Below, piece by piece: positions 18,813 to 50,000 of a DNA stretch of 64,000 nucleotides; within the stretch, counting starts at the first letter, position 1, and every line of letters begins with the position of its first letter. This DNA comes from Leptogorgia sarmentosa. Its lineage: Eukaryota. The position numbers and the translations under genes are program-made. The stretch covers positions 4,092,001-4,156,000 of the forward strand of contig OZ210885.1 of assembly GCA_964658305.1 (NCBI GenBank), read 5' to 3'. The notes beneath the pieces were generated by a model. It was given only the letters and a program-made list of their open reading frames with translations, was not told the origin of the DNA and ran no database searches.

Positions 18813-18894
18813 CCGCGTGTCGTTAGATCTATTCCCTTGTAAAGTTGTATTCGAATATAGCTGGCGTTTCAGCTATCCCGTCGGAGGTGCCACG

Positions 18895-19096
18895 TGTCGA
18901 GAATGTTTGCCTCCAAAACAGTTGTCCTCGACAAGTCACCAAAAATAAACTTTACTAACAAATTTAATCATAAAAATCACAGCCCGAGGTTTGACGCGTA
19001 TCCCACTTCTCACACACTGACTAACTGACACCCGATATTTTAATTCTAACCTATTTAATTGACTACCCTAATTGACTTATCTGTCAGTTCTCAACA
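18895..19096 (-). repeat. 5' LTR of the BEL/Pao element
   Basis: Direct repeat of 13069-13270; adjacent to the PBS. Confidence 0.95.
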
Positions 19097-25369: not shown

Positions 25370-28300
25370 ATGGCAACCTCCTACCTGTTGAACCATAAAA
25401 ATCTTTTAAAAGGTGTCAAGCCCTACAAGAAGCGAATGCGAGAGGGAAATGGTGTCATTCAGCAGAGCGACTATCTCAAAAAATTTTTGGAAAAAATTCG
25501 GATTGAAGGATTAGCGGCGGCCCATAAAAAGTATGGTGACAAACCACCTGACCCTAATGTTCATCACAGTGGTGCCCCGTCTGAAGCAGAAACGTTCATA
25601 CCTGAGTATGACTATGACGTCATTATTGTTGGAGCAGGTATGGCTGGTATCTCTGCAGCATACGAGTTAAAGAGAGCAGGATTTTCTGTGAAAATCCTAG
25701 AGCAGACAGACCGTTATGGTGGAAGGGTGTACACTTACAGTGGCGAGAAAGACCATCTTGCACCTGGTCTATATGGCGAAGGTACATGTTGCTACATGGT
25801 ATAAAAACGTTATTTGAATGAATATCCTGTGGCTAATATCATGCGTACTCGTGAGGAACTTTATTTTATATGTAATACCTTTCTAGATTTTAAGTTTTTT
25901 AGACAAACTGCATATTTCCCGCGATTTTATGTGTCATTTTGCGGAAATATTTTCCACAGATTCGAATATTTTCCACAGTTTCGAGATTTCATTTCAAATA
26001 ATTCATTTTGCTAACCCATTTTTTTACTTTTCAGCTGGTGCCATGAGATTACCAGGTGGTGTTGATGATCCAAATAAACCACATTTTCTAGCCAACGGTT
26101 ATATCACACAATTTGGGTTAACAATTAAACCATTTCCAAATTCTGATCCAAACACACTAACTCATATTTATGGTTATCCGACAACTGTAACCAGCGGTAT
26201 GTATCCTCCTTTACTATTTGAAACATAGCCCAAAAATGTAAATAAAAAACGTCAAAACCTGAATAACTAGCTTGAGTATAAACCAATTAGTAGACTTAGT
26301 AGACTATCGCAAATCCAGCGTTATGATTGCCTGAGCTACAAGTAGTGTATTTGTGATAGCCTTAACGCCGACTTACAACTTTTGCTCACAACTGTCGCAT
26401 GCAAGGCGCTTACAACTCGAATTGTACAATGTAAACAGTTCGATACAACACGAAAATTGCATCCGACAGGTGTAAGCAAAAGTTGTACGGTGTAAAAGTA
26501 AGTTTGATGCATGGACGTTGTTTCAAGAACAATTTCAACACGCCAATACAATGTATGATATCTTGTTCAGATTGGGAAAAGCTGTATTTCGATGAAGTTT
26601 GGCCTAATTGGAAGAAAAACATTAGTGCGGAGGTGAACATTCCAGATATAGGTACGTATAGAGTACGAGTTCATCTAATGAATTATTATGATCCACGTAT
26701 GTTGACTACTGGACCTGCCATTTTGAATAATTTTAGACTGTGCTTTTATCAAATCCCTGATTGGCCTCCGACTTAATTAAAATGTTTTTAAGCCAGAAGT
26801 AGTAAATTGAAATGAAACTTGTTTGGCGTCTGGGAAAATCAATCCCTTTTTTAGTACTAAGAATTCTGAAAAAGGAAGTTCTGAGAAATTCTCCTTAAAA
26901 CTTTATTTTTGATCAAAATTCGTGTTGGTGGCTATTTATAACCATTTATGCATGTGTTAAGTATGCATTATCCTTTTTAAGGTGGTATTATACAAAATAA
27001 TAGAGAATTTGATAAACCAGTAAATGCAAAAATGCGTTTACAATCAAGGTATCAAACTTTCTATCATCTTGTTAGGGTAAACATACAACCTTATCCTGAA
27101 GAAATTCATTGTATTGTTTTGCATGACTTTTTCTGAAATTTCTTCCTTTATGATCATATTGCATCAAGTATAAAACGATTTAAAATAAATATCAATCAAA
27201 TATAAAAAATATAAACAACAACAGGATAATATTACGGGAAGCACGCATGCTTTTATGGAAGTCAAAATATTAAAACATTTTGTGGCACAACTATATTGTA
27301 TTTTGATAATATTTAGAGATGTGTGTATTTATGATTTCTAAATTCTTTCCAGATTATCCAAAAAAACATAATCAAGAGTGAGATTTGATCATTATACTTA
27401 AGCGAAAAATTTATTGCGCCAAAAATTAATTTCAGATAAGAATTTATAGATGTAGAAAAAAGAATTATTTAACAAAATTTTGTAAAAAGAGATTCGCCCA
27501 ACCTATATATAATTCTACACGTCTTCAAATTCGACTTCGACATACCATGAGTGACAAAAATTCAGTTTCCGGGGTAATAGGGGGAAAGCTTCAAGAATTC
27601 GCCTCCCCTCCCCTCCCCCGCCGAATCGTAACAGTTGAAATATTGAAAATTGATCTTGTAAATAAGGTGACCATAAAGGGTATATACCTAACATCTATAT
27701 TTGATAATCAATCTAACCAAAACGATCAAGTAATGTTGTCGCAAGTTCGTGAAGCCCCTCCCCCCCGTCCCCTACCTCTGGAACTGAATTTCCGCCACCC
27801 TTTGCATATCATTCTTGTTTACCTATAATTTAATTGTAACGACCTACAACAACCACCATTTCATGCGATCACGCAACATCATTACATCAAGCAAGATGAA
27901 TTGAGTAGCTAGTCCAGATTAGTTCCACTGAACGGTAAACGATTATTAAGTGAGAAATTAGCTCATTTTAAGAGTAAAAGTAAAAACGCTTACCTTCAAT
28001 AGCCTCTCACTGTAAATAGTTTCTGATAATCATTTGGAAATTCTGAGACTATGAATGATTTTTATTGTACCTTGTTTAGGTACCTATTACAGCAAAACAA
28101 CCGAAGTTGTCATCAACCAATTGAAAAAGAAGTTACAAAAAATACCTGAACATGAAGGAAAAATTGCTGAAGAAATCCAAGTTTGGAATGACTGGATCAA
28201 CACCTGGAGTCAGTTCACAGTAGAAAGATTTCTCCTGAGCACTTATGATGTAATTATGGCAATGGTCCCTGACTGGGAAGATCCTTCAGATCCGGATATC

Positions 28301-30206
28301 CTTAAGAAACTTTTGCCTTGGCACAACGATGCCTTGCGAGGTTATTCTGTGTTTAACTACACTGGGATACTTGACGACTCTCTGGTGCAGCATCTTCGTG
28401 ATGACATGGGAAAATGGTGGTCAGAAAACATGCATACTCTAGAGGGCGGAATGCACAGTTTGGCCGATGCTTTTTTCGGTACAGAGAAGCTGAATGAAAA
28501 TGTCCTTCAAACCAACGCGCAAGTGTTCAAGATTAAGTACTCTTCACTACATTCGTCACCCAATGAAGACATGGTTGAGGTTTCGTGCTATGCAAATGAT
28601 TATTACCCTGAGGAACATAAATACACAGCAAAGGTACGTTTATTAAACTGTTATTGGGTTTAGTGACAGGAACTTGTAACTACCTTGTGACTAGGTTATT
28701 ACATCGTTATTACAACAGTTGATTGCCCTAAGTCTGTTATTGGAGCATTTGATTTTTTGCTTGTTTATTCTTGTCACATCAGCTAAAATTCGATTTCAAG
28801 GGAAACGCGGGAGAATTAATGGCACTTCATTGCGCAACGTTGTTAGGTCTCTAACAAAAAATCTAACTCAAACAAAAGTGTACGATTGTACACAAAGGAC
28901 GAAAACGCACCTTTCGTAAACGACATAGCAGTTGTTCTAAATATTACGAGACAACAGGACAGTATGAAAATACTAATAACTTACGCTTGAAGTCGTGCCC
29001 TTTGTAAGTTTAATTTGTAAGCCTTAAATTTATGTCAGGTACAGCCAACCACATACGTGTTACTAAATACGAGATAGTATATCAAATAAAAAACATTGAA
29101 ATTTATTATTATGCTGACATTTATTGCTTAAAACTGAAAGATGCAAAGTAAGTTAGTGGGAAACTGTTGGACACCCAAACATTTGAAAGTGTTTTGAGCC
29201 ACTTTAGGTTTGATAAACTATATTACTCTGTGCTCTTATTTATTACAGGCTGTAATTGTCACCACATCAGTGAATATACTACGGCAAATCAAGTTTGAAC
29301 CACTTGTTTCTGACAAGAATCAGAAACAAGAACAACGAAAAGCATTCCAAGCCATCGAAGACATCTTCACTGCAACGTCGACCAAGATAATCTTGCAAAC
29401 CAAAACAAGATTTTGGGAAAACAAAGGAATCCAAGGTGGTTTCTCTAAGACAAACCTCCCCATTGGTCAAATACATTACGTCAAACCTGATCCCGGATAT
29501 GACTCCACCAATCAAGGAATAATATTGATTTACACGTGGAAGAATGAAGCATTGATTTTTGGCTCCTTAACACAAGATCAGGTCAAGCAGGAGGCAATTG
29601 ACCAACTCGCAGAAATCCACCCGGAAATCAAGGAAGATGGTATGGTTGAAACTTGTATTGTTCATGCTTGGCACAACCAGCCCTCTTATCAAGGTGCCTT
29701 TGGTCTTTTGAAGACACATCAGTTTCAGAATATCAGGTAGGAGTTTACAAAAATGTCATCGAAACAAACATAATACAATTTAATGAATTTATATGTGCCA
29801 TGTGAAGCCCTTCAAGTGAAACGTTTAATGCCCTGGCTAACAATACTTTGCCCGTGGCTAACGCGTGCTTTGTGCGGCTATTGGAAGACGAGCGAAGCCA
29901 GTTAGTCAATTTCAGTGGGGGACAAGGTGGACATTTCAGTCTGTTGCGAATCACGGACATTTAATGCCGTGAGATTTTAATAAGATTCTTATAATATTTT
30001 TTGTGTTTAGATTCCTATGGGAACCAATGGGTAACGTATATTTTTCTGGTGATACCATCTCACTTGCTCCTGGTTGGATAGAAGGTGCATTAGAAAGTGG
30101 CCTCAAAGCCGCCTATCAAGTTTACGAGCGCCACCCAAAAATATCCGTGAATAAGTTATCAAAGTTAGGGAAACTGGTTGCGAAATGTTGTAATACTGAA
30201 ATATAA
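25370..30206 (+). CDS. L-amino-acid-oxidase-family flavin amine oxidoreductase, copy A, 630 aa
   Basis: Exons 25370-25781, 26035-26196, 26571-26651, 28080-28633, 29249-29736, 30011-30206 (1893 nt, GT-AG, in frame); motifs [34 protein letters not shown]; no signal peptide. Confidence 0.92.
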
Positions 30207-31250: not shown

Positions 31251-32844
31251 CGGCTTCAGCGTCCACGTGACTCCACGCGGCTGATCTATAGATAAATTGT
31301 CTCCAAAATATAAATTTATTTACAGAAAAGATTTTTGTATGTTAGTCAAAATTTCCGAGCGCCGTAGGCGCGAGAAACCTAGGGGGGTCTGGGCCGCAAG
31401 GAGATGCAGATCGGCCCCTAGACCATATGTGATAAGCACCTTGTCTTTTAGCGAAAGGTAGCATTTGAACCAATAAGCTATATTACGGCTTCGTATTTAT
31501 ATACGTTACACTCTTGAGGAGTGGTTGTTGTGGGACTTGTTTTGTGAATTTCATTGCGCATGCGCTTACGTCAAAATTTGTTTTCTTCGTTTTTTCAACA
31601 TCCCAGACATTGTGAAAGTGTTAAAAGCACGAATTGTCAAGCAAGAAACGAAAAAAAATTGTTTGAGTGAAAAAACCCGAAAATAATTTCGTCAAGCGCA
31701 TTGCGCTTGCGCGTACGTCAAAATTTGTTTTGAATAATTTCGTTGAAAATAATTTCGTCAAGCGCATTTTGAGTGAAGAAACCGAAAATAATTTCGTCAA
31801 GCGCATTGCGCATGCGCATACGTCAAAATTTGTTTTCTTCGTGTTTTTCAACCTCGGTAAATTTCATTGGCTTTTGTTGTTCGCATTGCACGAGAATTTT
31901 CTCTTTTGCGCTTAGCGGTCTTTTGCGACCTCGTTCGAATCTTGCTGGAGTCAATGCTTCCTATATAATCACGAAGCAAAGTACAGTGCAAGCTGCTACT
32001 ATGATGTCTTTTTATTGGACAAACAAACGATTTCATGAAAGGGAGAGCGACGTTTGAGAACCAAGTAATAACGAAAAGGAAGGACTGTTCTGGAAAAGAG
32101 CTGTTTTGTGGAGCCATACTTTGAGAATTGTAGTTTATTTTATACATATATTTATTACCATTTTACTGATGTAACATTTGGACCTTTCCTGTTTCAGACG
32201 GCGTTTTGAATCAAGAAAACACAGTAAACACAGTGATTCACACATTTTACAACGTTTTGTAACCAAACTTCACATTTTACTAGATTTAGGATGCTCATTC
32301 CAGCTGTGCTAACTTATTTTCTTAAATCAGTGCATGCCTGATTTGAATCCACTGCTGAATTCCAAAAAGTTTTGTAAAAAGTAAAGTTTCGGACAGCGGA
32401 GCCGCGACAAAATCGATAGAAGAGACTCGAAAGCGCCGTCTAACATACTAGTATAAAATAAACAATGCATATCATCTAATTATGTTATTATCATCTAAGT
32501 GTTAATAAATTACATTTTCAATTACCTGTCTTTTGTGCTTAGGAGATTATAGAACAAACACTCCTTTGTAGTCATATTGCGTGGGAGATTATAGAAAAAA
32601 ACAGTCCTTTGTACTGATTTTGCGTGGGACAAAATCACACAAAGACTTTATTTGCTTCATAATATTTGACACTTTTGCGTGATTTGACATTGTGTTGGTA
32701 CTAAAGGCAAGCACAATTTTACTCAAGCTAGACTTTTTGATCTGGTATAGGTAAAACATACACAGTATAGCCCACAAACATCTGACTACAAACATTGCGA
32801 TATATAGCTAGTTCGTTCACGGCAACCAGGTATAATATCACTCA

Positions 32845-33086
32845 TGTCTTGCTCGCTACTCTGGTTTGTATAATTGAATACAGAGCTCCCTCGAGGTGTA
32901 TTCACGACCCAACGTTTCGACACTCCAGTCTAGTGTCTTCATCAGTGATCTAGTGGGTGATCTAAAGTTACAACGCTTTAGGTCACCCCTGATGAAGACA
33001 CTAGACTGGAGTGTCGAAACGCTGGGTCGTGAATACACCTCGAGGGAGCTCTGTATTTATACAAACCAGACTAGCGAGCAAGACAT
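32845..33086. mobile_element. Long inverted repeat of Penelope-type terminal sequence carrying minimal hammerhead ribozyme cores
   Basis: Arms ~100 bp; CTGATGA-agacactagactggagtgtc-GAAAC at 32989-33020 (+) and its mirror at 32945-32908 (-). Confidence 0.75.
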
Positions 33087-33514
33087 CTGCGATATATTTT
33101 TGTTACAGTCAGTCGGCCATGATATGATTAATAATGCCATTAAGCCCCACAGTGGGATATAATAAACTAGTAAATTATGGTGGTGTTATCAGTTCGTGTT
33201 ACCCGACAATCCCGCCGTTACAGCACAATGGGAGAAGAGCATTGCAATATCATGGGAATAAAATTCAGGGCTGCTTAGAATTTTTTGGGTCAGGGTGAAA
33301 TTCCCTTTTGGGGTAAGGTTATTTTATACTCTATTAAGGGGCCCCTCAAAAGATACAGAATCTATTGTTATGATTTTTATTCAATGTGATGTGATTGGCT
33401 GAAATTTTCAGCAATATCGCTCAAAAATTAATCTTACTGACTGTGTCACTCGAAGATACAATCCGTGTAATATCCTCTATTTCCTCTTATCTAGGCACGT
33501 CTAAAGATTTCTTC

Positions 33515-34915
33515 ATGATGGAAAAATATGATGTCATTATTGTTGGTGGCGGACCCATGGGCCTTTCCTCAGCTTACCAATGTGGTGTTAAAGAGGGAAA
33601 GAAAGTACTTCTTCTTGAACGCTTTCACGAGTTTGCCAGCAAATATGGTTCAAGTGTTGGGTACAGTCGACAATTTCGCGTTAGTTATTCTGAAGAAAAT
33701 CTGAGTGCTCTGGCACTTAAGACCTACGACATGTGGGAAGATCTCAAAAACGAGTTGGAAGATGACACCCTCCTTCAGCTAACGGGCTGTCTCTGGTTCG
33801 GTGATGCAGACGTTAAATGCGGAGAAGGGAACATTGATGATGCCATTCAAAATTTGAAGAAACTTGGAGAAAAGGACTACAGAGTCCTTGAAGGAAGAGA
33901 GGCGATAATGGATGATAAAGAATTTGCCTTCGTTTCAGCAGCTGTGGCTAACATCGACAATCCAAAAGCCCTGTATACCGGCAAAGGTGGGACTATCAAC
34001 GTTCCTGGTTTGGTTGAAGGCTATGTCAAAGCTTTGGGGATACCAAATACTACGTTGATAACAAATGCATTCGTGACCAAGATCGACCACTCAAACGAAG
34101 AATTTGTAGAAGTGAAAGCGAACGTGGACGGCAACGAGAAAACGTACCGCGGCGAGAAGATTATCCTGACATCGGGAACATATATCAACGACGTTTTGTG
34201 CACTCTTGACCCTCCATTTCCCTATCGTATAAACCTGATCATTTACTTATGGTCTTCTACCTACTTCACAAAAAGAGTTGACCTGCCTCCAAACACAGAC
34301 CCTGCTGAATGGCCAATATGGTTTTTCTTTGGTCCAAAACCGACGGATGGCGGAGACGACGTCCCAAAGGATTACAACGATTATTACGGATTTCCGAGCG
34401 AGCCAAATCGTCCCCAATACCTTAGGGTTGCACCTGCATATACCTCACAAAAAAAATTCGACTTCATGCTCTCCCCACCTGCTGAAGACAAAAGGCCATT
34501 GGATGAACATGCTTTGGACTTTACAAAGAATTTTGTGGAACATTGCATGCCTGATTTGAATCCACTGCTGAAGAAAGAGGAGGAATCTACTTGTGTCGCT
34601 GGTTTTGCGTGCAAAACTGGGGGTGAAGAAGATAAAGGTGCTGGGTTTGTAGTTGATTTTCTACCAGGTTCTAAACGTATCGTCTTATTCACTGGCGGCT
34701 GGGCAATGAAGTTTGTTCCGATGATTGGAAAGATCCTCACCGATCTTGCAATCCGTGGAAAGACCGAGTACCAAGACCTCATCGAACCAATGAATATCAA
34801 CCGAGGAATATTGGTAAACGCAGATGTATGTCCAGTTAACCAAGCGAAAATGTCGAAAATGTCGGTCGCTCGAAAAACATTTCGAAAGATTTGGTGTTGT
34901 TCCCAAAAACACTAG
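33515..34915 (+). CDS. Intronless NikD-like flavoenzyme of the monomeric sarcosine oxidase family, 466 aa
   Basis: VGGGPMG, SRQFR, LWFGD, GGTI, YYGF, STCVA (putative covalent-FAD Cys), GWAMKFVP; splice acceptor ttcctcttatctag at 33494 precedes the ATG. Confidence 0.9.
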   Translation: MMEKYDVIIVGGGPMGLSSAYQCGVKEGKKVLLLERFHEFASKYGSSVGYSRQFRVSYSEENLSALALKTYDMWEDLKNELEDDTLLQLTGCLWFGDADVKCGEGNIDDAIQNLKKLGEKDYRVLEGREAIMDDKEFAFVSAAVANIDNPKALYTGKGGTINVPGLVEGYVKALGIPNTTLITNAFVTKIDHSNEEFVEVKANVDGNEKTYRGEKIILTSGTYINDVLCTLDPPFPYRINLIIYLWSSTYFTKRVDLPPNTDPAEWPIWFFFGPKPTDGGDDVPKDYNDYYGFPSEPNRPQYLRVAPAYTSQKKFDFMLSPPAEDKRPLDEHALDFTKNFVEHCMPDLNPLLKKEEESTCVAGFACKTGGEEDKGAGFVVDFLPGSKRIVLFTGGWAMKFVPMIGKILTDLAIRGKTEYQDLIEPMNINRGILVNADVCPVNQAKMSKMSVARKTFRKIWCCSQKH

Positions 34916-37105
34916 GGAAGCATGGATAGTTTAAGGGGAGGGGGAGGTCTTTTGGTACCTTTACTACCAGAATTGTATTAACAATAGTTAATCTTGAAAA
35001 CACTTTAATAATAGCTTGTGCAGAAACATTGTTTAGTTACAATGCAGTTTTCACCAACAGAGTGCAAAGTTGAAGTTTTAACTGTCAAGCTATTTGACAA
35101 TTGGTCGACGCGGGGAACTGAAGGGGACTAGTTGTTTTAGTATAAATTTTCAGGCGAATTAATATTTAAGCCATGAATTTTGTTCTTATTTGCACTTTAC
35201 ACTGTTGTTTACATCATGACGTAAACATGAACTTCGCATGTGACAAAGCAAGTTTTCGTAGAATATAAACATATTTGAAATTAAAAACTTATCTTAAAAT
35301 TTCTTAGTGAGATCATTTTGATAATATTTGTCATTTTTTGTCCTTCGCAGCATGCTAGCACACTTAAATTATCAATATATTATTATATAATATTGTTTTC
35401 ACCACTCGAGGATAAAATTCACTTCTTTGCACCACCACAGCAATTTAACAAAATGTACTAACAAAACTTCAACGTACAAGAGCTATTTGACTATTTGAGT
35501 CTATTTATTAGATAGAATGAAAGTGTTCTTTCGTACAGTTGACTTACAAATTTCAGCAATATTTCTGCAGGGGCTGAGCCCCCAATATATAATTTCTGGG
35601 GGGGGGGGGGGATTGTCGTGTGGTATTCCCAAAATGTTTGCTTGTACTTTGTCAACGAAAGCTGTTTTGGAAGTCTCATCACATCGTTTTTGAGCGAAAA
35701 CTAAGTCCTGCCCCACAAGTAGATTTTTGTGTGGACGATGGCCCACCGCCCAGATGCCTCCACTGCCCCTGCTATTCTCAAACCAAAATATAGGGTATAC
35801 CTAAACTAAAATAGAGTGTAAGACGTGCGCCAAGACAAGGTAAAATATTTTCCTGCAGCCAAACACCATATGAAGTTCCAAGATATATAAATTATCACAG
35901 CATTTGAGGCCTATAGACCTGAAGGTAAGAGATAATAACTTTGGAAATGTTTGTGTCCCATATAACATACATACGCCAGTTTGTTTACGAGTTAGTTCGC
36001 GCCATTTGAGAATTCTCGCCACGCCCATTTAAGCCGAAGTAAGTTTGCCCCATTTAGAATACCCGGTCAGCCGGGTGATTCGTTCTCCTCAGTTTGAAAA
36101 GCTGTCCCAATTCTAAAAGCACGAAGAAATAGAACAATTCTTCCTGAATTTTATGATATGGTTTGTTTTTACTTTTTTCATCAAAAAGGTGAATTATAGC
36201 TTCTGCCTTTTGTCAAACTCCCAACGTTTCTGTCCGACATCACACACTTGGACTACCACTGATAATATTATGTGACGTTGCTATAGTCTATGGTTATATA
36301 AATTGATAAATTGAAATACTTCATCCACCAAAACCCAGGACCATTTTTCATTTTTTATTTTTAAACAACAAGAATTCTATCATTACAATTGAGAACACAA
36401 CTAATTTAATAACACGTGCTGCTTGTGCTAGTTACTATATACCATGAAAGAGGTTTTTTACCTCATCTTGTCCATAGAGCTAGCTCGTAGCAGTAAAACA
36501 GGATATTTCTATTTTTAACAATGCTTGAATTAATTATTAAGGATATTTTTTTCAGCCTAAACGCTGTGGTTTCCAGATAATTATAGAAACAATCGAAACA
36601 CAACAATTTTGGAAGCAAGCGTGGGGAATTGGCAAGAGCTACATGCTACTCAATTCAAACCAAACTTTGTTTGTCTGCATGCTATCACACTTCTTGAGCC
36701 ATTGGCGGATTGTGGGTTGTACTTCGTTTATTTATTTCAGGGAGGGTGGGTGGAAAATAAAGTTTGAGCTCGAAAGTAAGTCGAAATTAATGAAAAAACC
36801 ATGAATAATATGCATGTGACTTAATTAATGCATAAACATCTATATACATGCTTTCTAATTGGCTGACACCTAATTGATATATGAAACGCAATTATTCGGC
36901 TAAGGAAGAAAAAGCAGCCGAAAAAATCCATACTTGTCTTTGACTTTGAATGCCTGCACATACACGTTTTTACATTTGACATGCATGTCGTGAAATAACA
37001 GGCGCTGGCGCTATTCCCACTGTTGCTTCGAAAATATTGTCTCATTAACTGAATTTAAATAGTTTAAAGCGGCTTTAGAATCAACTTCAAAAAACGTAAC
37101 AATCA

Positions 37106-40100
37106 CTAGTTTTCTGAAGATAGTTCCAACAGTTGCTTCAGTAAACCATCTTCATTCTTCAACAGTGCTTGAGGTGTGTCACAGTCAACAATATTTCCTT
37201 GATCCAAGAGCATTATTCTGTCACTGTCTAAGATTGTACTCAAACGATGTGCAATAGTTATGACCGTGCAATCTTTGAAAACCTCTCGAACAACATTTTG
37301 TATGTCTTCATCTGTCTTCCTATCCACCTTACCCGTTGCTTCGTCAAAAATGATGATCATGTTCTTCTTCAGCAGAACTCTTGTTAAATGTAACAATTGC
37401 CGTTCGCCCAAACTGAAATTTGAATCACTTGAATTAATTTCATTATCAAGTTTTCCAGGCAGATTTGAAATAGCAGATTCCATTTTAGTCTGAGCAAGAG
37501 CCGCCCATATGTCGTTGTCGCTGTGTTCTCCCAAGGGATCAAGATTGATTCTGATTGTACCGTTAATCAGGATTGGAGCCTGGGAAATAACGGAAATTAC
37601 TTGACGAGAAGATACCACATTGATCTCTCTTATATTCAAACCATCCACAAATATATCTCCCTCAGTTAAGGCAAGTCTCATCAACGCAGCTACCAATGAT
37701 GACTTGCCAGCTCCGGTACGACCAGCAATTCCAATTTTTTCTTTTGGTTTCACTTTGAATGAAATATTCTTCAGGACTTTAGGGCCACCCTTGTAATGCC
37801 ACAATGAGACACTTTGAAACTCGAGTCCACCAGCGTTCGGCCATTTTTCAGGGGAGGACTTGGGGAGACTTTGCCCACGTTCTTGTGGAATTTGAGTGTA
37901 AGCCATAGCACGTTCTGCTGACGTCATCTGGGCGTTAATGACACCGAAAAAACGAACAACAACTCTCACTAATGTGTTGGTTTGTAGTGCGTAGAGAATA
38001 GTAATGGCACCAAGTTCTATAATAAGGTAGTACAATTATATAAGCGCAGCAAGTTTCAACAGTCAATGTGTAGCATGCAGTAGCATTCTGAAAGTCTATG
38101 ATCACTATATAAATTAAATATAGTTTTGACGGTTTTGAAAAAATAACCAATTCGCGCAGTCTTATTATTTCCAAAGTAGACTCGAAACAATGCTATTCGA
38201 ATGAGAAATCATACTGGGTCTGGATGGAGTATAATTGATGATCTTTCATCAATCAATTGCCTACATTTAAAATGAATTTTATATAAATATTTGCATTCAC
38301 AACTGAGACAATTGAGTCAGCCGCCATGTTGATAGTCAGTTAATTACTAACCATAATAAATTTTATTATACGCGGCCAACATTTGTTTTGGCAAATGGCG
38401 CAATCTGATTGGCTGCTGATGGGGGAGGATTTTCCCGTATTGCTCACGGGAAATACGCAGTTTTTATTGCCCTGTCAGGAAACCAATCACAAAAAGCTTT
38501 AAATTTCAATGCGATTTCATTTTTTAAAGTAGAAATTATTAAAATGCGCAACGAGGATTATTCTGAAAGCCAGTTTTATTACCCATAGTTTAAAATGAGG
38601 GATACGAAACTGTTTTTTGTCAGCTTAAACAGTATAATAATTTGGTATATTATACCTCAAATTCAAATTGTCCAATGAAAAAACAGCATTTGTACCACGT
38701 GATAGTGTGATTTTTTACGGTATTTCACTAAAATTCATGATTTCGCAATCCAGCGTGGGATACTATAATATCCCACGGCAGATCCACCGTGCGTGACGCG
38801 TGGGCAACACGCGCTTAGCATAGCTAATTAGATATGCAAGATGTCGGGCGAGCAAGACTCGGGCGAAGAAATAAATAAAGTTTTTGAAAACAATGATGCA
38901 AAAATGTTTTGTTCGGTATAATATATCATTTATAGACCCTCCGCTCGTGGGATTCGGCGTAATATCATCACTTCGGGAAATATTACGCCGAATCCCCCTC
39001 GCTCCGGGTCTATAAATGATAATTATTCGTGCATGTCGTTTGAGCTCATTTCGAAACGCACATACAGTATGCCATATAATAAAAAACTTACTGACTTCGA
39101 CTGTTCGGGCTGTACGGGAAAATATCAAACCTCGGTCTTTCTGCATGTATTAACTCTCGGTCAGTAAGTTATTAATATTGCAGTCGGACTGCATTCAGTT
39201 TTGTCTTCCACGATATTTTGCACAATTCGCATGTGAAAAAACAATAAAAAAAGTGAAACGTACTTGCTGTGTAGGTATCCTTTGTAGAAAAAATTATTAC
39301 CACTGTAATAATTCCTGCCACAAACGTTGTTAAGCCGCAGCAGACTATATCAAAACATCTGGATGAGGTATAAAATGACAGAACTGCAGCAGTGTGCTTG
39401 TCAATATGCCTGCAAGAAATATAATGTAAGTTGTAAAAAAATAATGTAAAAAAAATATTAAGTAAGCTAAAAGACGCCGTCAAAAGGGGTCGTTTAGCGT
39501 ATTAGTTTTTTAGAGACGTTCAGATTTACCAGTTATATATAGTTTTAGGATAAAGTGAAAATAGATTGAGAAGTTACACCCAGTTCCTGAACGGCAAAAT
39601 AAAATTCGACGTTGAAAATAGGTAAAATGCATACAATTACAAATCGTATCTACACGAAATATTGGCATACGTGATCACAATTGTTCTGCCGTTGCGGTGG
39701 ATAACAGCATAGGTAGCCCACATATACACTTATTTTTATAGCTAATATTTATCTCAAAAATCGTTAAAAATAATGAAAATGTATATTTGAATGTTATAGT
39801 TATGTCTTTCGTTGCTTAATGTGCCTCTCATTAACTATGCACTCAGTGGCTCTCACGCACGCAGTTGATGTATATTAAACAATTATTGAATGAGGTCGAG
39901 TAGGGTATGAGGAATTATTAAGGCCGAGGTTTGTTTTATTTGTCGAAGCCGAAGGCTGAGGCAAATAACACAAACCGAGGCCTTAATAATTCAGCATATC
40001 CTACGAGAACCGAATTCAATAAATGTTTTATTATTTATTTGTATCTTTATCAGACCTAGGGTAAACCGACTTCTTTGAGAAAGCCATTTGTATTTTTCAG

Positions 40101-42671
40101 CTTTTGGCATAAGCAGCATAAATTAGTCGACGTCATAATGTCATATAATTTTCAATATAAGACATAATTACGTCATAATGTCGTATATGAGGATTTAATG
40201 CACTGCTCTTAACCAATCAAAACTATTGAATTATTTGAAATAAATAATAAACTTATATATTATACGACAATGACGTCACCTTACCATATAAGGGCAAAAC
40301 AGAGTGCAGATACCCAGCCGTATTGCACTCGCCGTATTGCACTCTAATATACTGCTGTTAGTATACAGCAGCAGTAACTATAGGCAACTAATTTACCATG
40401 CAGAGTCAAATATACCTGAAGACTTGTTCTGTATATTCTTTCTGCCTGGAATGAATTCTAATAGTTTTCAGACCTTCCATTGTGTTGGAGAAATGAGAAT
40501 AGACAGGACCTGCTGCCATCAGCATCAGACGTTTTAAATCGGTAGATGAAGTAATATAGACACTTCCAATGAAGTAAAATAACGGCATGGAACATAAAAA
40601 TGCGAGGATCAACCAGGGATTTGTGATGCTAGCCAGCAATATGGTGGAAATGACTGGTGCAAAGAAGTTTAACGTTACACAGGCATAATACGGAAAAAAC
40701 TCATCCAGGATGTTGATATCTTGAGATAAACGGTTTAGGATTCGACCGACAGGATTTGTCGCGTAAAATGATAAGGATGCTTTCATAAGGCACGTAATCA
40801 TCTTGTTATGAACCTGAAAGATTATTCAAAATTTTAACATGCGTTTACAACAGCTAGGTATATATATTTTTACAGATATACACTCACCTTATAGGATGAA
40901 CTCATTAAAAGTAGGAAAATTCCCAGCGTACCCACAACCGTGAGTAGTACTGCAAAAATAAGGTAAATCATGTACAAAACGAACATGTGATGAAGTCTAG
41001 AGTTTCCATCCCCGGCAAACGTTGGGAATTCTGATGAAATGATGTTCACCAAAACAATTAAACCTAAAAATAGAAAACAAAAATTTTGATTTCTATAAAG
41101 TATTGGCCTTTTGTTTGATACTTATTAATTATAGACCTGAATTGGGCGAGAATATTTCCTGAAGAAATAAAAGGATTGTTGGATACATAGCAATTTTTTT
41201 TGCTGTAACATTTCCTAAACCTGCATTAAAGTGTTTGAATATATTTTGTTCGTTTCTACATTCATTGCATGCATGCAAAAAGATGTATTTTTGTTCGGCA
41301 TCATATATATCGTTTACATACCTACATCCAGTCATGATTGCCACTACTCATGGAAATGAATTAGGCGTGGGTTCTTTTCGTAAATATAATAATGTTATTA
41401 CAAAAATACTAATTGTGAAAGCCCCTTGACAAGTTGCACTTATACAGACTGACCTACTGTAAGATGCATGGATATCTACTGTCGCGCAAAATAAACAGCA
41501 TTCACACTAGTCTATGGTTTACGGACCCGTGAAGAAATTATTTTAAGGATGGTCACGTAATTCCGATAAGCATAGTGTAGTTCTGCGTTTTAATTGCGTT
41601 CCTTGGCGCTTGGATTTTGGATTTGGCAAGAGGAACGCCGTTCAAACGCCCGACAAAAATAGGGGGGGGGGGACGTCGTTCACCCTGCAAACCATCACTG
41701 CCTTTATCTCGGTGTATTCCACTCTTAATAGCTACTAACCTGCACCAGAGAAATAAAGCACGGGGACAAGAAGCACGATAAACGGGGAGGCTCCGTGAAG
41801 TAAATATTTCAAGTAAACTTTCAAAGAAACCGTTCCACTCTTTCTATCTTCCTCTTCTTGTTCAAGGTTGACACCTTCCACAGATTCTTTATTATCAGCC
41901 CATACGTCACGTTGCTTGCCATCCTTTGAACTAGTGTCGTCTACAACAGATCCATCAAGTGGAATTGTATTTTTCAAGGTTTCAAAATTTCCTTGAAAGG
42001 CAATCACTCCTCCTTCTCCCAACTGGACAATACGATCAGCCATTGGATAATATTTTGTCGCATGTGTTGTCAAGAGAACTATTCGATCAGATAATAGTCC
42101 TTGGATACAATCTCTAGATTAAAACAATGACATTTATAATAAATATTGTAAAATTTGTCCTTTCAATTATCCTGGATTAGATTTCAAACTTTTATTTCAA
42201 ATTTTTCTCAAATTTTTCATAGCTTAAATCCCTTTAGCTACTATTTGATTTCTCAACATTTTTAAGTGACATTAATAAATATTCAATTTGACTGTTCGTG
42301 TATGCATTTTATAAAGTGTCGAATCTAAAACCTGCAGTTGACATTCAGTTCCTAGCGATATTTGAATAAATCTTATTTTCAATATGATTAACAGGTAATC
42401 GCATGGGGTCCTCCTTAAATTAAGGTTAAAGGTAATTTGTAAAATTTTGGAAACACGCGTAACATTAATCCTTAATTTTACTCGGCCCCATGCGATTACC
42501 TACACAAATCCTTCGGGCAGAACATGAATATACACTCCCCCGAAAAATTAACGCTCTAGCGACGTCCCTGTGAATGAAGAACTGTGATTACTGCCCAGGC
42601 ATTTCAAAAGATTCATTAACCAGGCCCAACGGGTTTATTTACGCCATCTAATCTATCTATATATATATATA

Positions 42672-42754
<83 letters not shown>

Positions 42755-45700
42755 ATATATATATATATATATATATATTAGACACTTCCCAATACAATAC
42801 CATGAAATTTAGGGGTGGGGGGGGGGGGGGGGTGCGCATAGAACAATGATTTACATTCTCCCTCTCCCTTTTGCACATTACGATAAAACTGAAATGAATA
42901 ACTAACCTGAAGAGATTCTCAGCGACATTGATGTCCAAAGAGCTCAGAGGATCATCCAATAAATATATATCAGCTTCAGAATAAACTGCGCGTGCCAAAG
43001 CAATGCGTGTACGCTGACCACCACTCACGGTCGCACTATTTTCTCCTATACGTGTTAAATCATGTTCCGGAAAATTATCAAAATCCTTTTCCAGCTGACA
43101 TGTCTTGATTATCTTGTTGTATTTGCTCTCGTTGTAAGGTAAACCGAATACGATGTTTTCACGAATAGTTCCGGGAAAAACCCAAGGCGAGTCAGAGACA
43201 TAGGCTAATTGACCAGAGTAGTTAACCGAGCCATTAGTCACCAATAACTCTCCTAGAATGCTTTGTAGAAGCGATGACTTCCCAGTTCCGACGCCACCGC
43301 ATATGAGAACCAATTCTGGACTAGCCACTTCAAGATTAATGTTTTTCAATATTGACGAACCTTCGGTTTTTGATTCAAAGAACTGGGAGGAACCACACGC
43401 CGAAGGAACTTGACAAGTTACGTCATTTAAATTAACAAATGGTATAGGAGAGCGTTTGGATTCTTTAGGTAAATCATCCAATTTTACTTTAATCCAGTTT
43501 TTCGCACTTTGAAGAGATTTATTTGATGAATTATCAGTTGCTGTTAGAAACATTTCAATACGCTGAAGAGCACCACGGACGTCGCTGAATAATCGTATGG
43601 TTGTTGGAATACCAACAGCAGCCGATGTATTAATTATTCCAAAGAGGTATATCATGGAAAAGAAATTCAAATATGCGATGTCATTTCTTGCGGTGTAAAT
43701 TAATGTGCACACTGTGATGAAAGTTGCCAAATTTTGACCACAAGCCATGAATCCGTAACTTATCAATGAAATAATCCAACGTTTACATTTGAGTTTCACT
43801 TCTTCCCTAAGGTAAAGAAAATAATTAATTGCTTTATTACTTTTTGAAACAATGAAAAAATTTCTGTGGAATTTCTTTAGTATAGCGGCAAGTTCTTTGC
43901 TATTTTGTGGACATTTACATTCGTTGCTTTCAAATAATCTTCATAAAAAGTTTTTTACAAGCTTCCGTTGATTTTTTTATGTTATGCGAAACCTTTGATT
44001 ACAGTTTCTTCAAGGTTGGCAAACTTTCACCTTTGAGGAAGCCGTTTGTTTTTGTTTTTGTTTTTTTCACATTCCCGTTTGAATCCTTCTAAAGATGATG
44101 TCGTCGTCATTGGTATGATGTCATCACGTGTTATAAAACTCGTCCACGTTATGACGTCATCGTTTAACATGACGATTTCATACATACTAAACCTCTGGTT
44201 GTCATATATTTACAACTATAGCAAAGCAGATTCTTTTGCCTTCAAAAGTGTATAAAAAGGTATTCCATTTAGCGTTAATTTGGGTGTATGAACGTAGTTT
44301 TTGCATCATCATGTAGGGCAAGGTCTTTGCTGTTGGATGTATGACAACGAGTATGTTTCTTTTTATACTTGTAGGAAGTAATTTTGCATCGGGGAATGAT
44401 TAGAACTAACCCTATCCTACTACTTGTTAAATATTTACCATCGTGTTTTCTGTATTTTTTCTTCGAAGATCTTTTCCCAACAGTTCACTTTAACGGAATG
44501 TATCACAGTCAGAGATTCCCTAATATAACCAAGACGTTTCTCTGACAAGCCAGAGGCTTTCTTACGTAAATCATAGTCAACTTTACTACAAAGCATCTGA
44601 AATACGACAAATGATGATAAAAAGATGGTGCCAGGTATGACTTGCCAGCCAATGTAGTAAACCAGCCAAGCTGTAGCGTTTACGGCTTCTGAAAATTGAC
44701 GAAGACCAAAAGGAATATACCATTCTCCACTGGTGACCAATCTTTGCGAATCATTGCAAACTAATTCCATCACGTGACCGCTGTTAACGGCCATTTTATT
44801 CAGTCTGAGCACCTAGATAACGCAGCATATAAAACAATTAACCATTCCCTGATCGATAACACAAAGCATCGTGGGATTTATTTGAAGGGACAGTGCAAAA
44901 CAGACCAAAATATTTATGGACACGCCGCGCGGCTGATCAGCTACGACTCTGCCAGCCACCCAATATTTGTGTACACCGCTGATTTTTGAACTATTTTAGT
45001 GAATATTTATAACTCACCTTTTTATACAACAAACCCATCACTCCCGTCTTGGCTTTGTTCCCTAGATTTGCGCCATGAACATTAAAACGAGCACTTCCAA
45101 ATATTTGCATCATAAATCCCAACACGAAACCATAAACATACATCATGGCATCTTCATAAAATCGGATGTTATTTTTGTTCTCCCCAAAGCCGCTTACTAA
45201 TTGCAGCAAACTAATGAGTGAATACCAAGAAATATTTTCTCCAACAGTCATAACAATCCAAAACACTAAGTACATCATGTAGTCTCCAAAATTGAAATAT
45301 CGTAGCATTGCTTTCCATAACTTCGAAGCCCGTTTATCTATAAATATAGCCAAAATTTATCGGTTGAACTTTGTTATAATTAATATACTGTTCTCAGCTG
45401 ACTTTTTTCTTAATATCATTGTAGTCAATTTCCTGGACGCTGATTGGCTAAAAAGCTTCAACAACTGTGCGAATTAAACATTAATTACACAGGTGTGTAA
45501 TTAATTTTTCAAATACCACGTTTTCGAGCCCGCGATACGCGAGCGGATAAATTTAAAAACAAGTAAAACTACAGTAAAATTTTTGTTTCTCGTATAAATT
45601 TACGATGGATTTTGATTTGTTTGATACTAAAAGGAAATTACACTTGTTTTCGAAGTATTAATGAAAAATTGCACTTGTGCCGAGGAAAAATCTCATTGCC

Positions 45701-46227
45701 CTATCAGTGCATTCGTGCCATGCAATCGCAATAAGCCTAATACTGTATATCTGTTGTAAAAAAACAAACATCTGTATTGATTTCAAACCCATTTTAGTAT
45801 ACACCCAACCATGGTCTATTACAAATGCTAAATTCTGATTGATTACTCAGCCGTTGTCTATTCCGTGATAGACCACGCTTCGCGAAAAAGCAAAGGAAAA
45901 CAATATGGCTACTGCAGAAAACTCGCCCTTTGCTGCAAAATTTTCTTGATAAAAACAATTAGACAACTTGACCTCGTTGTCTAATTGTTAAATAGTAACA
46001 AAATTGATACCTTTCTTTGCAGAATCCTTTTCCTGTTTCCATTTCTCTTCTAAACGTTCAGTGAGTTTACAGCTCTGATCTTTGTCTCTCACGTCGTGCA
46101 GGTCGTCTTGTTGTAGTGGACGTCGCCATCCTTTCAACAGGAGCGGAATGATCCACCACAACGCTACTCTCGATACAAAGTTCGCCCTCTCTTGCGGGTG
46201 ACGCTGTGACGTTTTCCCTGATTCCAT
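37106..46227 (-). CDS. ABC transporter subfamily C, ABCC4/MRP4-like, 1271 aa
   Basis: Exons 46227-46011, 45337-45018, 44812-44439, 43806-42907, 42113-41740, 41063-40888, 40813-40416, 39409-39264, 38016-37106 (3816 nt, phases consistent); lasso motif, NBD1 [21 protein letters not shown]2 [17 protein letters not shown]; no TMD0. Confidence 0.92.
42655..42778. repeat. (AT)n microsatellite in an ABCC intron
   Basis: AT run with two C interruptions. Confidence 0.95.
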
Positions 46228-46545
46228 TTTGCTGTTGTGAATGGGCTTCTCTCATAAACACCTTTGGTCAGGGTATACGATATTGTGAAGATTTAAGAGA
46301 AAAACGTAACCTCTGCAAAAGTTTAAGTATTATCTTAAGATGAGTGACAGGTTCGGCCGTTGAAAAAATCTTTAAACTAAAAGTGTTTTTATCCCTATAA
46401 CTAGAATAAATTGCATTCGATTGCATGTATGAAAAGATATTTGAGTTTTGAATTTAAGTTTTCTATCAGTTTTGTAGAATGTGAATAATTAACAAGAGGA
46501 GAAGTGAACTTTGAAAATAAAATTAACGAAAATATTAAATATATT

Positions 46546-46891
46546 GGCCCCGATTACACTATACCGTATTCCTCTGGAGCGTGGCGATTTTCTGGAGGTG
46601 ATATGAAAAGCAATCCGTATGTTTCGTAGCAGTGTAAACACTACAATCCGGTATTCTCGTAGTGTGCAAAAAAATGTTTTATGACAGCCATTAAATACTG
46701 GTATTGCCATTATTACTATATTTCACGAATGCTGCCTAGAAAAGTCGTTTTTGCTTTTAATTGAATGAATTTTAGCGGGATCTATATTACAAATGACCTC
46801 GGTAGAAACGGGCAAGGCGAGGAGCTGTACGGGGCGTTTTGGCAGTAGTGTGAACAGGCGTGCGTGAATCCGGTATAGTGTAATCCCAGCC
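46546..46891. mobile_element. MITE-like element upstream of the ABCC start
   Basis: Inverted repeats GATTACACTATACCG / CGGTATAGTGTAATC; no clear TSD. Confidence 0.55.
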
Positions 46892-47014
46892 ATAGCTACT
46901 GGATACGCACCTATTAATTAGAAATAAACGGTGCTATTTTAGAAGTAAATGTTCTGAACTTATAAAATTCCGTACAAGGCACGTGATTGTGATCAAGTTG
47001 GACAGAAGAGAGCA

Positions 47015-50000
47015 ATAATTTTGCAACAAAGCTAAGATACAGTCATACAGCATATATAATTGTTCCACTTGGCTAGTTCCAAAATACAATCATATACAAT
47101 CAACTGACATGGCAACTGAGAAACAACCCAGTGATAATAAATTATGTCTTAGTCATTCTATATTATTGAGATATTTTTTAGAAAATATTTCTGGTGGAAA
47201 TCACGAGTCCTCAAGTCTCAACCACAGTAGAACCGATCAGGTTGAAAGAAATCATTCGTGCAAAAGAAATCATTCGTGCATGTGATGTGTGGCACATCAT
47301 GCATGCCTAGATTATAGAATACTCGTCCACTTTTGAAACTGTTACTTGTTATCATGGTACGATGTTACAAATTCAGAAGAATAAGGGGAAATGGGGAATG
47401 ATATTTAAAAAGCCCGGGCAAGCTAGATATAATTTTTTACAACGATGTATGGATATTCACCCCCTCCCCCACAATCAATTAACGCTCTAGCATCAGCTCT
47501 GAGCTATGCTTCTTAAGGTTTCATCTATAGCATTCTCGACAATGTCTTCACACACTGCGGGTCTTGAAACGACCATTAGGCAAATGTAATCTACAAGTAA
47601 GTCCCCAAGTATAGTCCTAGCGAACGCCTCACAGGTGTCTTGTTATTTATATCGTCCGTTGCATACAACATTCTTCAGTATAAGACGAATCTGTAGATCA
47701 TTTTGTCTTACTTGTATTGCTCGAGTCAGGCAGTGTGAGGTGAAAATACTTGTGCAGAATAGCAGCAGGCTCGGCAATTATAACAAATGTAACTATGTAA
47801 GTCGCTCAGGTATGAATGTAGCTACACATTGAGTTTGAACACTTCATTATACTTGCTTACCTATATCAATCCAATTATCCAAATGATAACACTGTTTGAT
47901 AAATTTGTCTCTCAGCCACTGGACAAATTCTATTTCATTCGCCGAGTCGATTTTCAATGCTATAGCTATACAGATACCAAACTTTATAATGTTCTGTCTA
48001 ATTTCACATTTTTCATAACCATGGTCGGCTGCATTTATAGATTACCACAGAACTCTATATCTTTATATGTTTGTGCGGAAAGCGTAACAATTTTGAAACA
48101 AAGACACCGCATATATAATTGTTCCACTTGGTTAGTGCCAAAATAGAATCATATCAACCAAATAGCATGGCAACTGAGAAACAACCCATGCAGTGATAAT
48201 AAAATATGTCTTAGTAATCCTATATTATTAAGATATTTTTATAAGAAATATTTCTATCTGGTGGAAATCATGAGTCCGCAAGTCTCAACCATAGAAGAAC
48301 CGATCAGGTTGAGCGCTCCGAGGACAAAAAGAAATCATTCGCGCATGTGATGTGTGGCATATCATGCGTGCAAGAAATTATTTCCTTCAAAAATTCAGTA
48401 CAAATTCTCCAATGTGGCTAGATTATAGAATACTCGTCCACTTTTGAAACTGTTACTTGTTACCATGGTACAATGTTACAAATTCAGAAGAATACGCGGA
48501 ATGATATTTAAAAACCCTGGGCAAGATATAATTTTTCACAAGGAATATGGATATTCACCCGCTCCCCCAATGAATTAACGCTCTATCTTCGGCTCTGAGC
48601 TATGTTTCTAAGGTTTTATCTATAGCATTCTCGGCAATGTCTTCACACACTGCGGGTCTTGATACGACCATTGGGCAAATGTAATCTATAAGTAAGTCCC
48701 CAAGTAGTCCTAGCGAACGGCCCACAGGTGTCTTGTTATTTATATGATTGTATACAACATTCTTCAGTATAAGACGAATCTGTAGGCCATTTGTCTGGCT
48801 TGTATTGCTCGAGTCAGGCAGTGTGAGGTGAAAATACTTGTGCAGAATAGCAGCAAGTTCGGCAATTATAACAAATGTAACTATGTAAGTCGCTCAGGTA
48901 TGAATGTAGCTACACAATGAGTTTGAACACTTCATTATACTTGCTTACCTATATCAATCCAAATGATAACACTGTTTGATAAATTTGTCTCTCAGCCACT
49001 GGACAAATTCTATTTCATTCGCCGAGTCGATTTTCAATGCTATAGCTATACAGATACCACACTTTATAATGTTCTGTCTAATTTCACATTTTGCATAACC
49101 ATGCTCGGCTGCATTTATAGATTACCACAGAACTCTATATCTTTATATGTTTGTGCGGAAAGCGTAATAATTTTGCAACAAAGACACCGCATATATAATT
49201 GTTCCACTTGGTTAGTGCCAAAATACAATCATACCAACCAACTAGCATGGCAACTCAGAAACAACCCAGTGATAATAAAATCAAGATTGATTGTACCGTT
49301 AACCCGGATCGGAGCGTGGGAAATAACTGAAATTACTTGACGAGAAGATACCAAATATTTCTCCTTCAGTTAAGGCAAGCCTCATCAACGCAGCTACGAA
49401 TGATGACTTCCCAGCTCCGGTCCGACCAGCAATTCCAATTTTTTCCCTTGGTTTCTCTATATCTTTGTGTTTGTGCGGAAAGCGTAGCGATAATTTAACA
49501 ACAAAGACACAGCATATATAATTGTTCTACTTGGTTAGTGCCAAAATACAATCATATCAACTAACTAACATGGCAACTGAGAAACAACCGAGTGATAATA
49601 AAATATGTCTTAGTCATCCTATATTATTGAGATATTTGTTTAGGAAATATTTCTATCTGCTGGAAATCATGAGTCCGGTCTTAACCACAGTAGAACCGAT
49701 CAGGTTGAAAGAAATCATTCGAGCAAAAGAAATCATTCGTGCATGTGATGTGTGGCATATCATGCGTGCAAGAATTTAATTCCTTCAAAAATTCAGTACA
49801 AATTCTAGTCCAGCATGGCTAGATTATAGAATACTCGTCCATTTTTGAAACTGTTACTTGTTACCATGGTACGATGTTACAAATTCAGAAGAATAAGCGG
49901 ATGATATTTAAAAAGCCTGGGCAAGATATAATTTTTCACAAGGATATATGGATATTCACCCCCTCTCCCCCAATGAATTAACGCTCTAGCTTCGGCTCTG

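Follow-up and report, generated by a model that had tools for sequence, protein, structure and literature searches.

A 64,000-nucleotide stretch of the octocoral Leptogorgia sarmentosa (assembly GCA_964658305.1, contig OZ210885.1, positions 4,092,001 to 4,156,000 of the forward strand), called the window here and numbered from its first letter, carries a gene for a flavin oxidase resembling NikD (Table 1). NikD of Streptomyces tendae (PDB 2oln, 2olo, 2q6u, and 3hzl) is a flavin adenine dinucleotide (FAD) oxidase that converts piperideine-2-carboxylate (P2C) to picolinate in nikkomycin biosynthesis. The coral gene is free of introns in its coding part and adjoins spliced genes, namely a six-exon gene for an L-amino acid oxidase (LAAO), encoded on the same strand and with its end 3.3 kb upstream, and a gene of many pieces for an ABC transporter similar to ABCC4. 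The new finding is that animals have an oxidase of NikD type, that its partner is an LAAO instead of an aminotransferase, and that it is conserved in anthozoans and a sponge; the chemistry of NikD was known already. By analogy, the pair is a candidate route from lysine to picolinate.

The coding sequence (CDS) is one open reading frame (ORF) of 466 codons and a stop. A pyrimidine tract followed by AG at 33493-33494 forms a predicted splice acceptor ahead of its ATG. Six public sequencing runs (X1 to X6) contain the stretch; none is recorded as RNA, and their kinds were deduced from coverage. At a word depth of about 110-125, X1 and X2 extend over introns and intergenic sequence, as genomic DNA would; the sample behind the assembly may be their source. 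In the DNA-like contigs, the depth is about 120 over the NikD-type gene and about 113 over the LAAO introns, an equality that may not be independent evidence if the sample is the same. In X4 and X5, the LAAO exons are covered, the depth is zero in bins 26906-27707, and a joint from 29734 to 30009 with GT..AG ends removes LAAO intron 5. X4 to X6 are read as RNA because only LAAO exons are covered and intron 5 is spliced out. Contigs of these three runs are collinear with the genome over 33494-35156, without any joint and across the whole NikD-type CDS (X5 33494-34008 and 33984-34260; X6 34077-35125; X4 and X5 ends at 35123 and 35128). The CDS is therefore transcribed and unspliced, provided that the runs are RNA as deduced.

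The start of the transcript is seen in one X5 contig of 65 nt, which matches 33494-33530 and has 28 letters ahead of 33494 that are unlike the genome. The break falls exactly at the predicted AG. The leader, read by eye, has an in-frame TAA 10 codons ahead of the ATG at 33515; translation of the transcript represented by this single contig therefore starts at 33515, and the protein is not joined to the upstream frame. The leader was not found in the 64-kb window at up to three mismatches, and it may be a distant first exon beyond the window, a leader added by trans-splicing, or an artefact of a single short contig. A fusion transcript of LAAO and the NikD-type gene had been considered because the frame of the latter is open from 33395 and because fusion proteins with an Amino_oxidase domain ahead of a DAO domain (AO-DAO) align into this upstream stretch. 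It was rejected, as LAAO copy 1 terminates at a stop of its own (30204-30206) and the leader has the in-frame TAA. The G+C content of the NikD-type CDS is 0.441 (0.435 at third codon positions), against 0.410 (0.384) in the LAAO exons. The CpG observed/expected ratio is 0.91 and 0.58, respectively, and this difference may be due to different gene-body methylation. The protein ends in ...CCSQKH and not in the SKL-like tripeptide that is the consensus of the peroxisomal targeting signal PTS1. A preliminary description, made from the letters of the window alone, had proposed a single-exon CDS among spliced neighbours, a splice acceptor just before the ATG with an intron in the 5' untranslated region, and no PTS1; all three agree with the ORF, the joint-free contigs, the break at AG, and the C-terminus.

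A full-length DAO domain (PF01266) was recognized at residues 6-411 with E 8.6e-29. The best NCBIfam models, MTOX (116 bits, cut-off 257) and soxA_mon (104 bits, cut-off 480), were far under their cut-offs. When the protein was compared with PDB in phmmer, NikD (2q6u/2oln) came first, with E 4.3e-41 to 1.6e-40 for three NikD sequences and residues 1-420 of the query aligned to 1-379 of the chain, followed by monomeric sarcosine oxidase (MSOX, 4.4e-16) and N-methyltryptophan oxidase (MTOX, 1.6e-14). The identity to NikD is about 28%. In this alignment, the motifs RHWR, LWFGD, NEG, GGTI, PFWFAF, FYGF, STCLA, and GWAFKFVPLFGRICADLA of NikD correspond to RQFR, LWFGD, GEG, GGTI, PIWFFF, YYGF, STCVA, and GWAMKFVPMIGKILTDLA of the coral protein, so all eight motifs quoted in the preliminary description align as it had stated. 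NikD residues Arg53, Glu101, Tyr258, Cys321, Trp355, and Lys358 are Arg55, Glu104, Tyr291, Cys360, Trp396, and Lys399 in the coral protein. We take Cys321 of NikD to be the cysteine carrying covalent FAD, Trp355 to sit over the flavin in place of the MSOX histidine, and Tyr258 and Glu101 to be active-site residues; Asp276 is presumably an active-site acid. A Tyr258Phe mutant of NikD is named in the title of PDB entry 3hzl. Covalent attachment of FAD to Cys360 is predicted on this basis. The conserved Arg, Glu, Tyr, Trp, Lys, and flavinylated Cys of the preliminary description thus all align, and six of the seven NikD residues checked are retained; Asp276, which it did not name, is replaced by Ala308.

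In an alignment of 19 NikD-type proteins (A1), Arg52, Arg55, Tyr291, Cys360, Trp396, and Lys399 are among the 26 invariant columns, and the column of Glu104 has Glu in 18 of 19 rows, with Gln in P0087. A motif GW[AG]xKF (GWAMKF in the coral protein) sets the NikD-type group apart from both the GHGFKF of MSOX and MTOX and a further group with GRxFKF; the tryptophan stands where GHGFKF has its histidine. The preliminary description had contrasted GWAMKF with GHGFKF of the animal peroxisomal sarcosine oxidase PIPOX and of MSOX; the comparison made here was with outgroup proteins similar to MSOX and MTOX, which carry GHGFKF. The fold leads to the same relative. An AlphaFold2 model computed from the 19-row alignment had mean pLDDT 88.3 and pTM 0.89, with only the last 19 residues below 50, and Foldseek placed four NikD entries of PDB on top (E 1.4e-34 to 1.9e-32, TM by target 0.83-0.86), ahead of sarcosine oxidases including MSOX at about 1e-29. 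By sequence and model, the protein is of the NikD type and not of the MSOX type. With PIPOX, MSOX, and MTOX it shares the superfamily, the fold, and a carboxylate-binding Arg/Lys pair, which a passage of PMC6222107 gives as common to MSOX, MTOX, and NikD. It differs from MSOX and MTOX in the motif above, in much weaker similarity, and in its separate clade, and from PIPOX in its end unlike PTS1.

The C-terminal tail of the animal-clade proteins ends in ...F(R/K)KIWC or similar and in the window protein (P0001, residues 448-466) reads ...TFRKIWCCSQKH (A1 columns 520-566). It is absent in the bacterial relatives and was modelled by AlphaFold2 as a short helix at low confidence.

Among 5.8 billion proteins, a word-seeded search found 106 matches. 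The named ones were Paramuricea clavata (73% identity over 86% of the query), Dendronephthya gigantea (65%), Xenia sp. (59%), the sponge Oopsacas minuta (46%), the bacteria Microcoleus, Polaribacter, and Emticicia (31-35%), and a basidiomycete (32%). No named bilaterian was among the 106 matches. Proteins of five Acropora species are in the cluster of P0026, which is 52% identical to the window protein, and coral orthologues are named in RefSeq as 'putative bifunctional amine oxidase DDB_G0291301'. The homologue clusters looked up had named members only from Acropora, Dictyostelium, Hypsizygus, Gigaspora, Phalansterium, and a metagenome-assembled genome (MAG) of Thermoanaerobaculia. An exhaustive HMMER search gave 1555 representatives with E<=1e-3, of which 40 had E<=1e-30, and a scan of one genome per prokaryote species gave 81 relatives, none above 33% identity. 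Only generic DAO clusters were found in ESM Atlas, and a scan of metagenomes with the window protein found one short, uninformative fragment. The gene is old in non-bilaterian animals, as it is present in octocorals, Acropora, and a sponge. Many full-length homologues are predicted as a single ORF on a long genomic contig, such as P0006 (1.3 Mb), P0038 (1.5 Mb), and P0064 (0.54 Mb). They look like prokaryote-style gene calls, since P0002, a homologue 98% identical to the window protein, begins upstream of the ATG at the non-ATG codon with which the raw ORF of the window begins too. From this we infer an uninterrupted CDS for many members of the animal clade.

A quick maximum-likelihood tree (LG+G4, SH-aLRT support) was computed from 105 rows, comprising 32 of 67 full-length 'animal-like' proteins, hand-picked against near-duplicates, 18 of 20 LAAO fusions, 14 other single-domain relatives, 27 of 80 prokaryote loci, seven MSOX/MTOX-like proteins, and seven of GRxFKF type; P0026 was left out. 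All 32 animal-type rows form one clade with support of 100. P0070 and P0108 branch first, then the sponge with P0064 and P0065, and then the remainder, in which the window protein is sister to Paramuricea inside an octocoral group. The sister of this group is a second one of 10 rows including P0027; as the length and identity of P0027 match the Acropora cluster, the second group is, at a guess, Acropora-like. Fusions of a DAO and an Amino_oxidase domain, P0111 (98) and P0149 (81), and then P0121 are sisters of the animal clade, followed by a large bacterial clade (83) with NikD-like genes of actinomycetes and genes of Bacteroidota and Oxalobacteraceae, so that its nearest named neighbours are bacteria. 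Dictyostelium, Phalansterium, Gigaspora, and two basidiomycetes are in another clade, together with cyanobacteria. The MSOX/MTOX group is separated with support of 99. In an approximately unbiased (AU) test, a grouping of the 32 animal rows and these five named fungal and amoebozoan rows apart from 43 bacterial and outgroup rows was rejected (delta lnL 173.5, p 2.4e-5), with the caveats that this grouping was chosen after the tree had been seen, that the tree was a quick one, and that 13 rows had unusual composition.

The preliminary description had suggested horizontal acquisition from a microbe followed by domestication. Read as a recent event, this did not hold, as orthologues 46-73% identical are present in other octocorals, in Acropora, and in the sponge, which is a broad vertical distribution within non-bilaterian animals, an outcome that the description itself had set against its proposal. 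Bacterial contamination or a very recent acquisition in L. sarmentosa would fit with the intron-free CDS and with the bacterial source of the closest characterized relative, and is nevertheless hardly conceivable. The gene lies between animal genes on one sequence, at the DNA depth of the LAAO introns (in a sample that is possibly not independent), with a spliced 5' leader and with G+C content close to that of its neighbours; as far as the data go, these features, the orthologues, and the 33% ceiling among prokaryotes refute it. Because of the spread of orthologues, that same ceiling, the spliced leader, and the near-native composition, recent acquisition is excluded, and any transfer was therefore ancient, the gene being shared by octocorals, Acropora, and the sponge. 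A microbial origin of that age is plausible at a little under even chances. The AU result, the clade-wide lack of introns, the absence of named bilaterians among the matches of the word-seeded search, and the bacterial neighbours in the tree are compatible with it. As an alternative to ancient transfer, an old eukaryotic gene may have been lost in Bilateria.

In other organisms, too, a NikD-type oxidase is repeatedly found beside, or fused to, an alpha-deaminating enzyme. Twenty of the 24 homologues above 600 aa combine a DAO with an Amino_oxidase domain (14 DAO-AO and six AO-DAO); in three, the fusion partner is ELFV_dehydrog, and in one it is Methyltransf_7, a SABATH methyltransferase. The LAAO fusions carry GW..KF. 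The ELFV and methyltransferase fusions carry GRxFKF and belong to the separate group, and they were not relied on for this reason. In prokaryotes, 28 NikD-type loci were inspected, with 64 flanking ORFs scanned of the 153 listed. The adjoining gene encodes an Amino_oxidase at 12 loci, a DegT-family aminotransferase at three (all from actinomycetes), and an ELFV_dehydrog at two; the other 11 had none of these partner families at E<=1e-10 in the scanned flanking ORFs. An Ldh_2 gene (L022) and an ornithine-cyclodeaminase/mu-crystallin gene (L033), of families which we take to include P2C reductases, are also found near NikD-type genes. The bacterial pairs with Amino_oxidase (Oxalobacteraceae, Flavobacteriaceae, Cytophagia, and others) have the same two-gene arrangement as the coral, with at most 33% identity to it and with partner oxidases only faintly like the coral LAAO; some are linked to M61/M28 peptidases. 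In actinomycetes, a NikC-like aminotransferase beside a NikD-like oxidase makes up such a module. The coral gene has an LAAO of general type next to it and no aminotransferase, where NikD has a NikC-type aminotransferase as partner, and its host is an animal without a nikkomycin-type cluster.

Within Bacteroidota, the NikD-type domain is fused to an M61 aminopeptidase at locus L014 (1403-4393), and L011 and L024 have an M61 aminopeptidase downstream. Locus L013, from a record titled Nitrosopumilus MAG, has NikD-type and Amino_oxidase genes at 6181-8921 beside an IS110 transposase; it clusters tightly with Flavobacteriaceae copies and looks like binning contamination or transfer.

Among eukaryotes, DDB_G0291301 of Dictyostelium discoideum (UniProt Q54EW2, 'putative bifunctional amine oxidase') has a NikD-type DAO domain with GWAMKF followed by Amino_oxidase in one chain. 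Unlike the separate genes of the coral, it is a fusion; its identity to the coral protein is 33%, and it belongs to the clade with fungi and cyanobacteria. The literature search, judged by titles and abstracts, found no functional study of it. NikD-type and LAAO genes are on scaffolds of the same size in eight further cases, among them Dendronephthya (4,408,652), Xenia (9,618,625), and Acropora digitifera (2,364,662) and five others, one of 22,423 bp, which suggests that they share a scaffold. In P0111 and P0149, the DAO domains are nearest the animal clade and the Amino_oxidase domains are most like the coral LAAO (E about 1e-40), so the two domains appear to have matching histories.

These data bear also on whether the protein is an ordinary catabolic oxidase of sarcosine, pipecolate, or N-methyl amino acids, an analogue of PIPOX or MSOX that has an LAAO as neighbour by coincidence. 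Its membership of PF01266, its best (though far sub-threshold) NCBIfam models, and the RefSeq name 'bifunctional amine oxidase' would agree with such a role. NikD is matched 25 orders of magnitude better than MSOX, though, a tryptophan replaces the histidine of GHGFKF, and the tree places the protein apart from the MSOX/MTOX group; moreover, alpha-deaminating partners were seen at 17 of the 28 prokaryote loci and in 23 of the 24 long homologues, too often for chance to be a likely cause. We consider this role quite improbable.

In the window, the two LAAO copies are inverted duplicates with exons 83-96% identical in nucleotides, and all segments are open in both; a start and a stop were located for each. 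They bracket the NikD-type gene and the transporter gene, which converges on it. ABCC4 is the best PDB match of the transporter (E 3.4e-59), and this ABCC4/MRP4-like organic-anion transporter might export the product. The NikD-type gene is flanked by retrotransposon ORFs as well as multi-exon genes. A nest of transposon ORFs on both strands at 6600-20200, where the G+C content is raised to 0.42-0.48, includes by Pfam a hAT dimerisation domain, five RVT_1 pieces, Pao peptidase A17, an integrase zinc domain, DUF1759, DUF4371, and DUF5641. Just upstream of the NikD-type gene, positions 31300-33300 are a high-copy repeat with many loose ends; in the DNA-like runs, its word depth adds up to 3e4 to 3e5, compared with about 110 in single-copy sequence.

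Table 1. Position of the NikD-type gene and of its neighbours in the window, and the basis of each assignment
Feature	Position	Strand	Basis
CDS of NikD-type FAD oxidase, single exon, 466 aa and stop	33515..34915	+	ORF, PDB sequence and fold matches, RNA-like contigs
5' untranslated start of the coding exon	33495..33514	+	sequence and one X5 contig joint
3' untranslated region, end approximate	34916..35125	+	RNA-like contig ends only, a weak hint
LAAO gene copy 1, six exons, predicted partner	25370..30206	+	Pfam Amino_oxidase, tblastn with octocoral LAAOs, intron 5 spliced in X4 and X5
LAAO copy 1 exons, approximate	25370-25783, 26016-26195, 26564-26671, 28067-28651, 29234-29737, 29997-30206	+	tblastn
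LAAO gene copy 2, inverted duplicate, six exons	53551..59318	-	tblastn, nucleotide comparison with copy 1
ABCC4/MRP4-like ABC transporter gene, multi-exon, extent approximate	37109..49526	-	Pfam ABC_tran and ABC_membrane, PDB match

The function proposed for the pair follows the known chemistry. For nikkomycin biosynthesis, excerpts from PMC4021061 and PMC11446937 describe an L-lysine 2-aminotransferase that leads to P2C and NikD that leads from P2C to picolinate, and a passage of PMC7698073 has alpha-oxidation of lysine leading to delta-1-piperideine-2-carboxylate. LAAO, aminotransferase, and dehydrogenase all make an alpha-keto acid; therefore, the recurring partners point to one common logic of deamination, spontaneous ring closure, and ring oxidation by the NikD-type enzyme. 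In the coral, the LAAO would deaminate L-lysine to a keto acid that would cyclise to P2C, and the NikD-type enzyme would oxidise P2C to picolinate, following an alpha-deaminating step as NikD does. Both steps would take place in the cytosol, as by eye neither protein has a signal peptide or PTS1. That the oxidase acts after the neighbouring LAAO on the path from lysine over P2C to picolinate has, judged from sequence and analogy, about an even chance of being correct.

Several observations weigh against this function, against the evidence from pairing, or against its extension to homarine, which is N-methylated picolinate. Substrate, product, and coupling to the LAAO are predictions from sequence and context. 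Ala308 stands in the place of Asp276 of NikD, and in A1 this column has Ala or Gly in all nine animal-clade rows, with Asp in nine of the 10 others and Glu in one; because this position is changed, catalysis may differ from that of NikD. The animal-clade proteins carry insertions, which total about 70 residues in the coral protein, and the C-terminal tail (...FRKIWCCSQKH in the coral), both absent from NikD. The coral LAAO is of the general animal and venom type (E 1e-35), closer to it than to fungal lysine oxidase (3e-18), and faintly like the bacterial partner oxidases (E 1e-7); with an LAAO of general type, its lysine specificity is a prediction. In Bacteroidota, the pair is beside or fused to M61/M28 peptidases and looks catabolic, not biosynthetic. 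The shared scaffolds of the eight further cases are deduced from equal sizes and not from coordinates. As for N-methylation, the window was searched for a methyltransferase with negative result, in ORFs of at least 55 aa at 20.2-53.5 kb and of at least 100 aa elsewhere, and the Methyltransf_7 fusion (P0246) is of the GRxFKF group and not of the NikD type. The word-seeded protein search found no named homologue in molluscs or crustaceans. For shrimp, homarine was reportedly attributed to another route (Netherton & Gurin 1982, cited in PMC13236597), and for a NikD homologue in another pathway, an excerpt from PMC11446937 proposes a stop at the two-electron product.

The changed Asp276 position throughout the animal clade, the LAAO that is not of lysine-oxidase type, and the proposed two-electron homologue would also agree with another chemistry on the same fold and with the same pairing. 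Pyrroline-2-carboxylate from ornithine or arginine would be oxidised to pyrrole-2-carboxylate, or a two-electron product of dehydropipecolate type would be formed; five- and six-membered ring substrates are indistinguishable by sequence alone. As Arg55, Lys399, Trp396, Tyr291, Glu104, and Cys360 all match NikD, and NikD is the only characterized member close to the coral protein, we regard this chemistry as unlikely, if worth keeping in mind.

Mollusc ink LAAOs act on lysine, and LAAOs are widely used in defence. It is very doubtful, for the coral pair, that its purpose is to generate defensive peroxide, with LAAO and a second oxidase multiplying H2O2 per amino acid and with the organic product incidental. 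Such a role would be in line with the defensive use of LAAOs, with the duplicated LAAO gene in the window and the many LAAO paralogues of Dendronephthya, and with the CpG ratio of the NikD-type CDS above that of the LAAO exons, high ratios being typical of inducible genes in cnidarians. Neither protein has an N-terminal signal peptide on inspection by eye, which speaks against it, and the conserved substrate-binding residues point to a specific product.

If the pair makes picolinate from lysine, this could be a step to homarine, which is N-methylpicolinate according to an excerpt from PMC13236597. In the literature search, homarine was reported from gorgonians. Of the small nitrogen metabolites in marine animals and plankton, it is one of the most common, and it serves as an osmolyte, an antifoulant, and a signalling cue. 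Onward N-methylation of picolinate would give homarine, and picolinate is, by analogy, a possible homarine precursor in the octocoral. No gene for animal homarine synthesis was named in the literature searched (homarine titles from 2022 on, in part), and the search for LAAO together with picolinate returned nothing relevant. For synthesis, the excerpts from PMC13236597, which appeared in 2026 and deals with the catabolism of homarine, cite no work other than the shrimp study of 1982. The widest form of the proposal is that the LAAO and NikD-type pair is the route of corals and sponges from lysine over picolinate to homarine, a microbial module taken up before these lineages split, kept linked since, and joined here by an organic-anion exporter. 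Taken with all its parts, it is speculative and improbable.

Even if the pair should prove to have another function, it remains a clear example of a NikD-type gene without introns that anthozoans and a sponge have retained. The linked pair, predicted to make picolinate from lysine, is a directly testable hypothesis and, if true, would give a likely role to the uncharacterized DDB_G0291301 family and to many bacterial pairs of NikD-type and amine oxidases.

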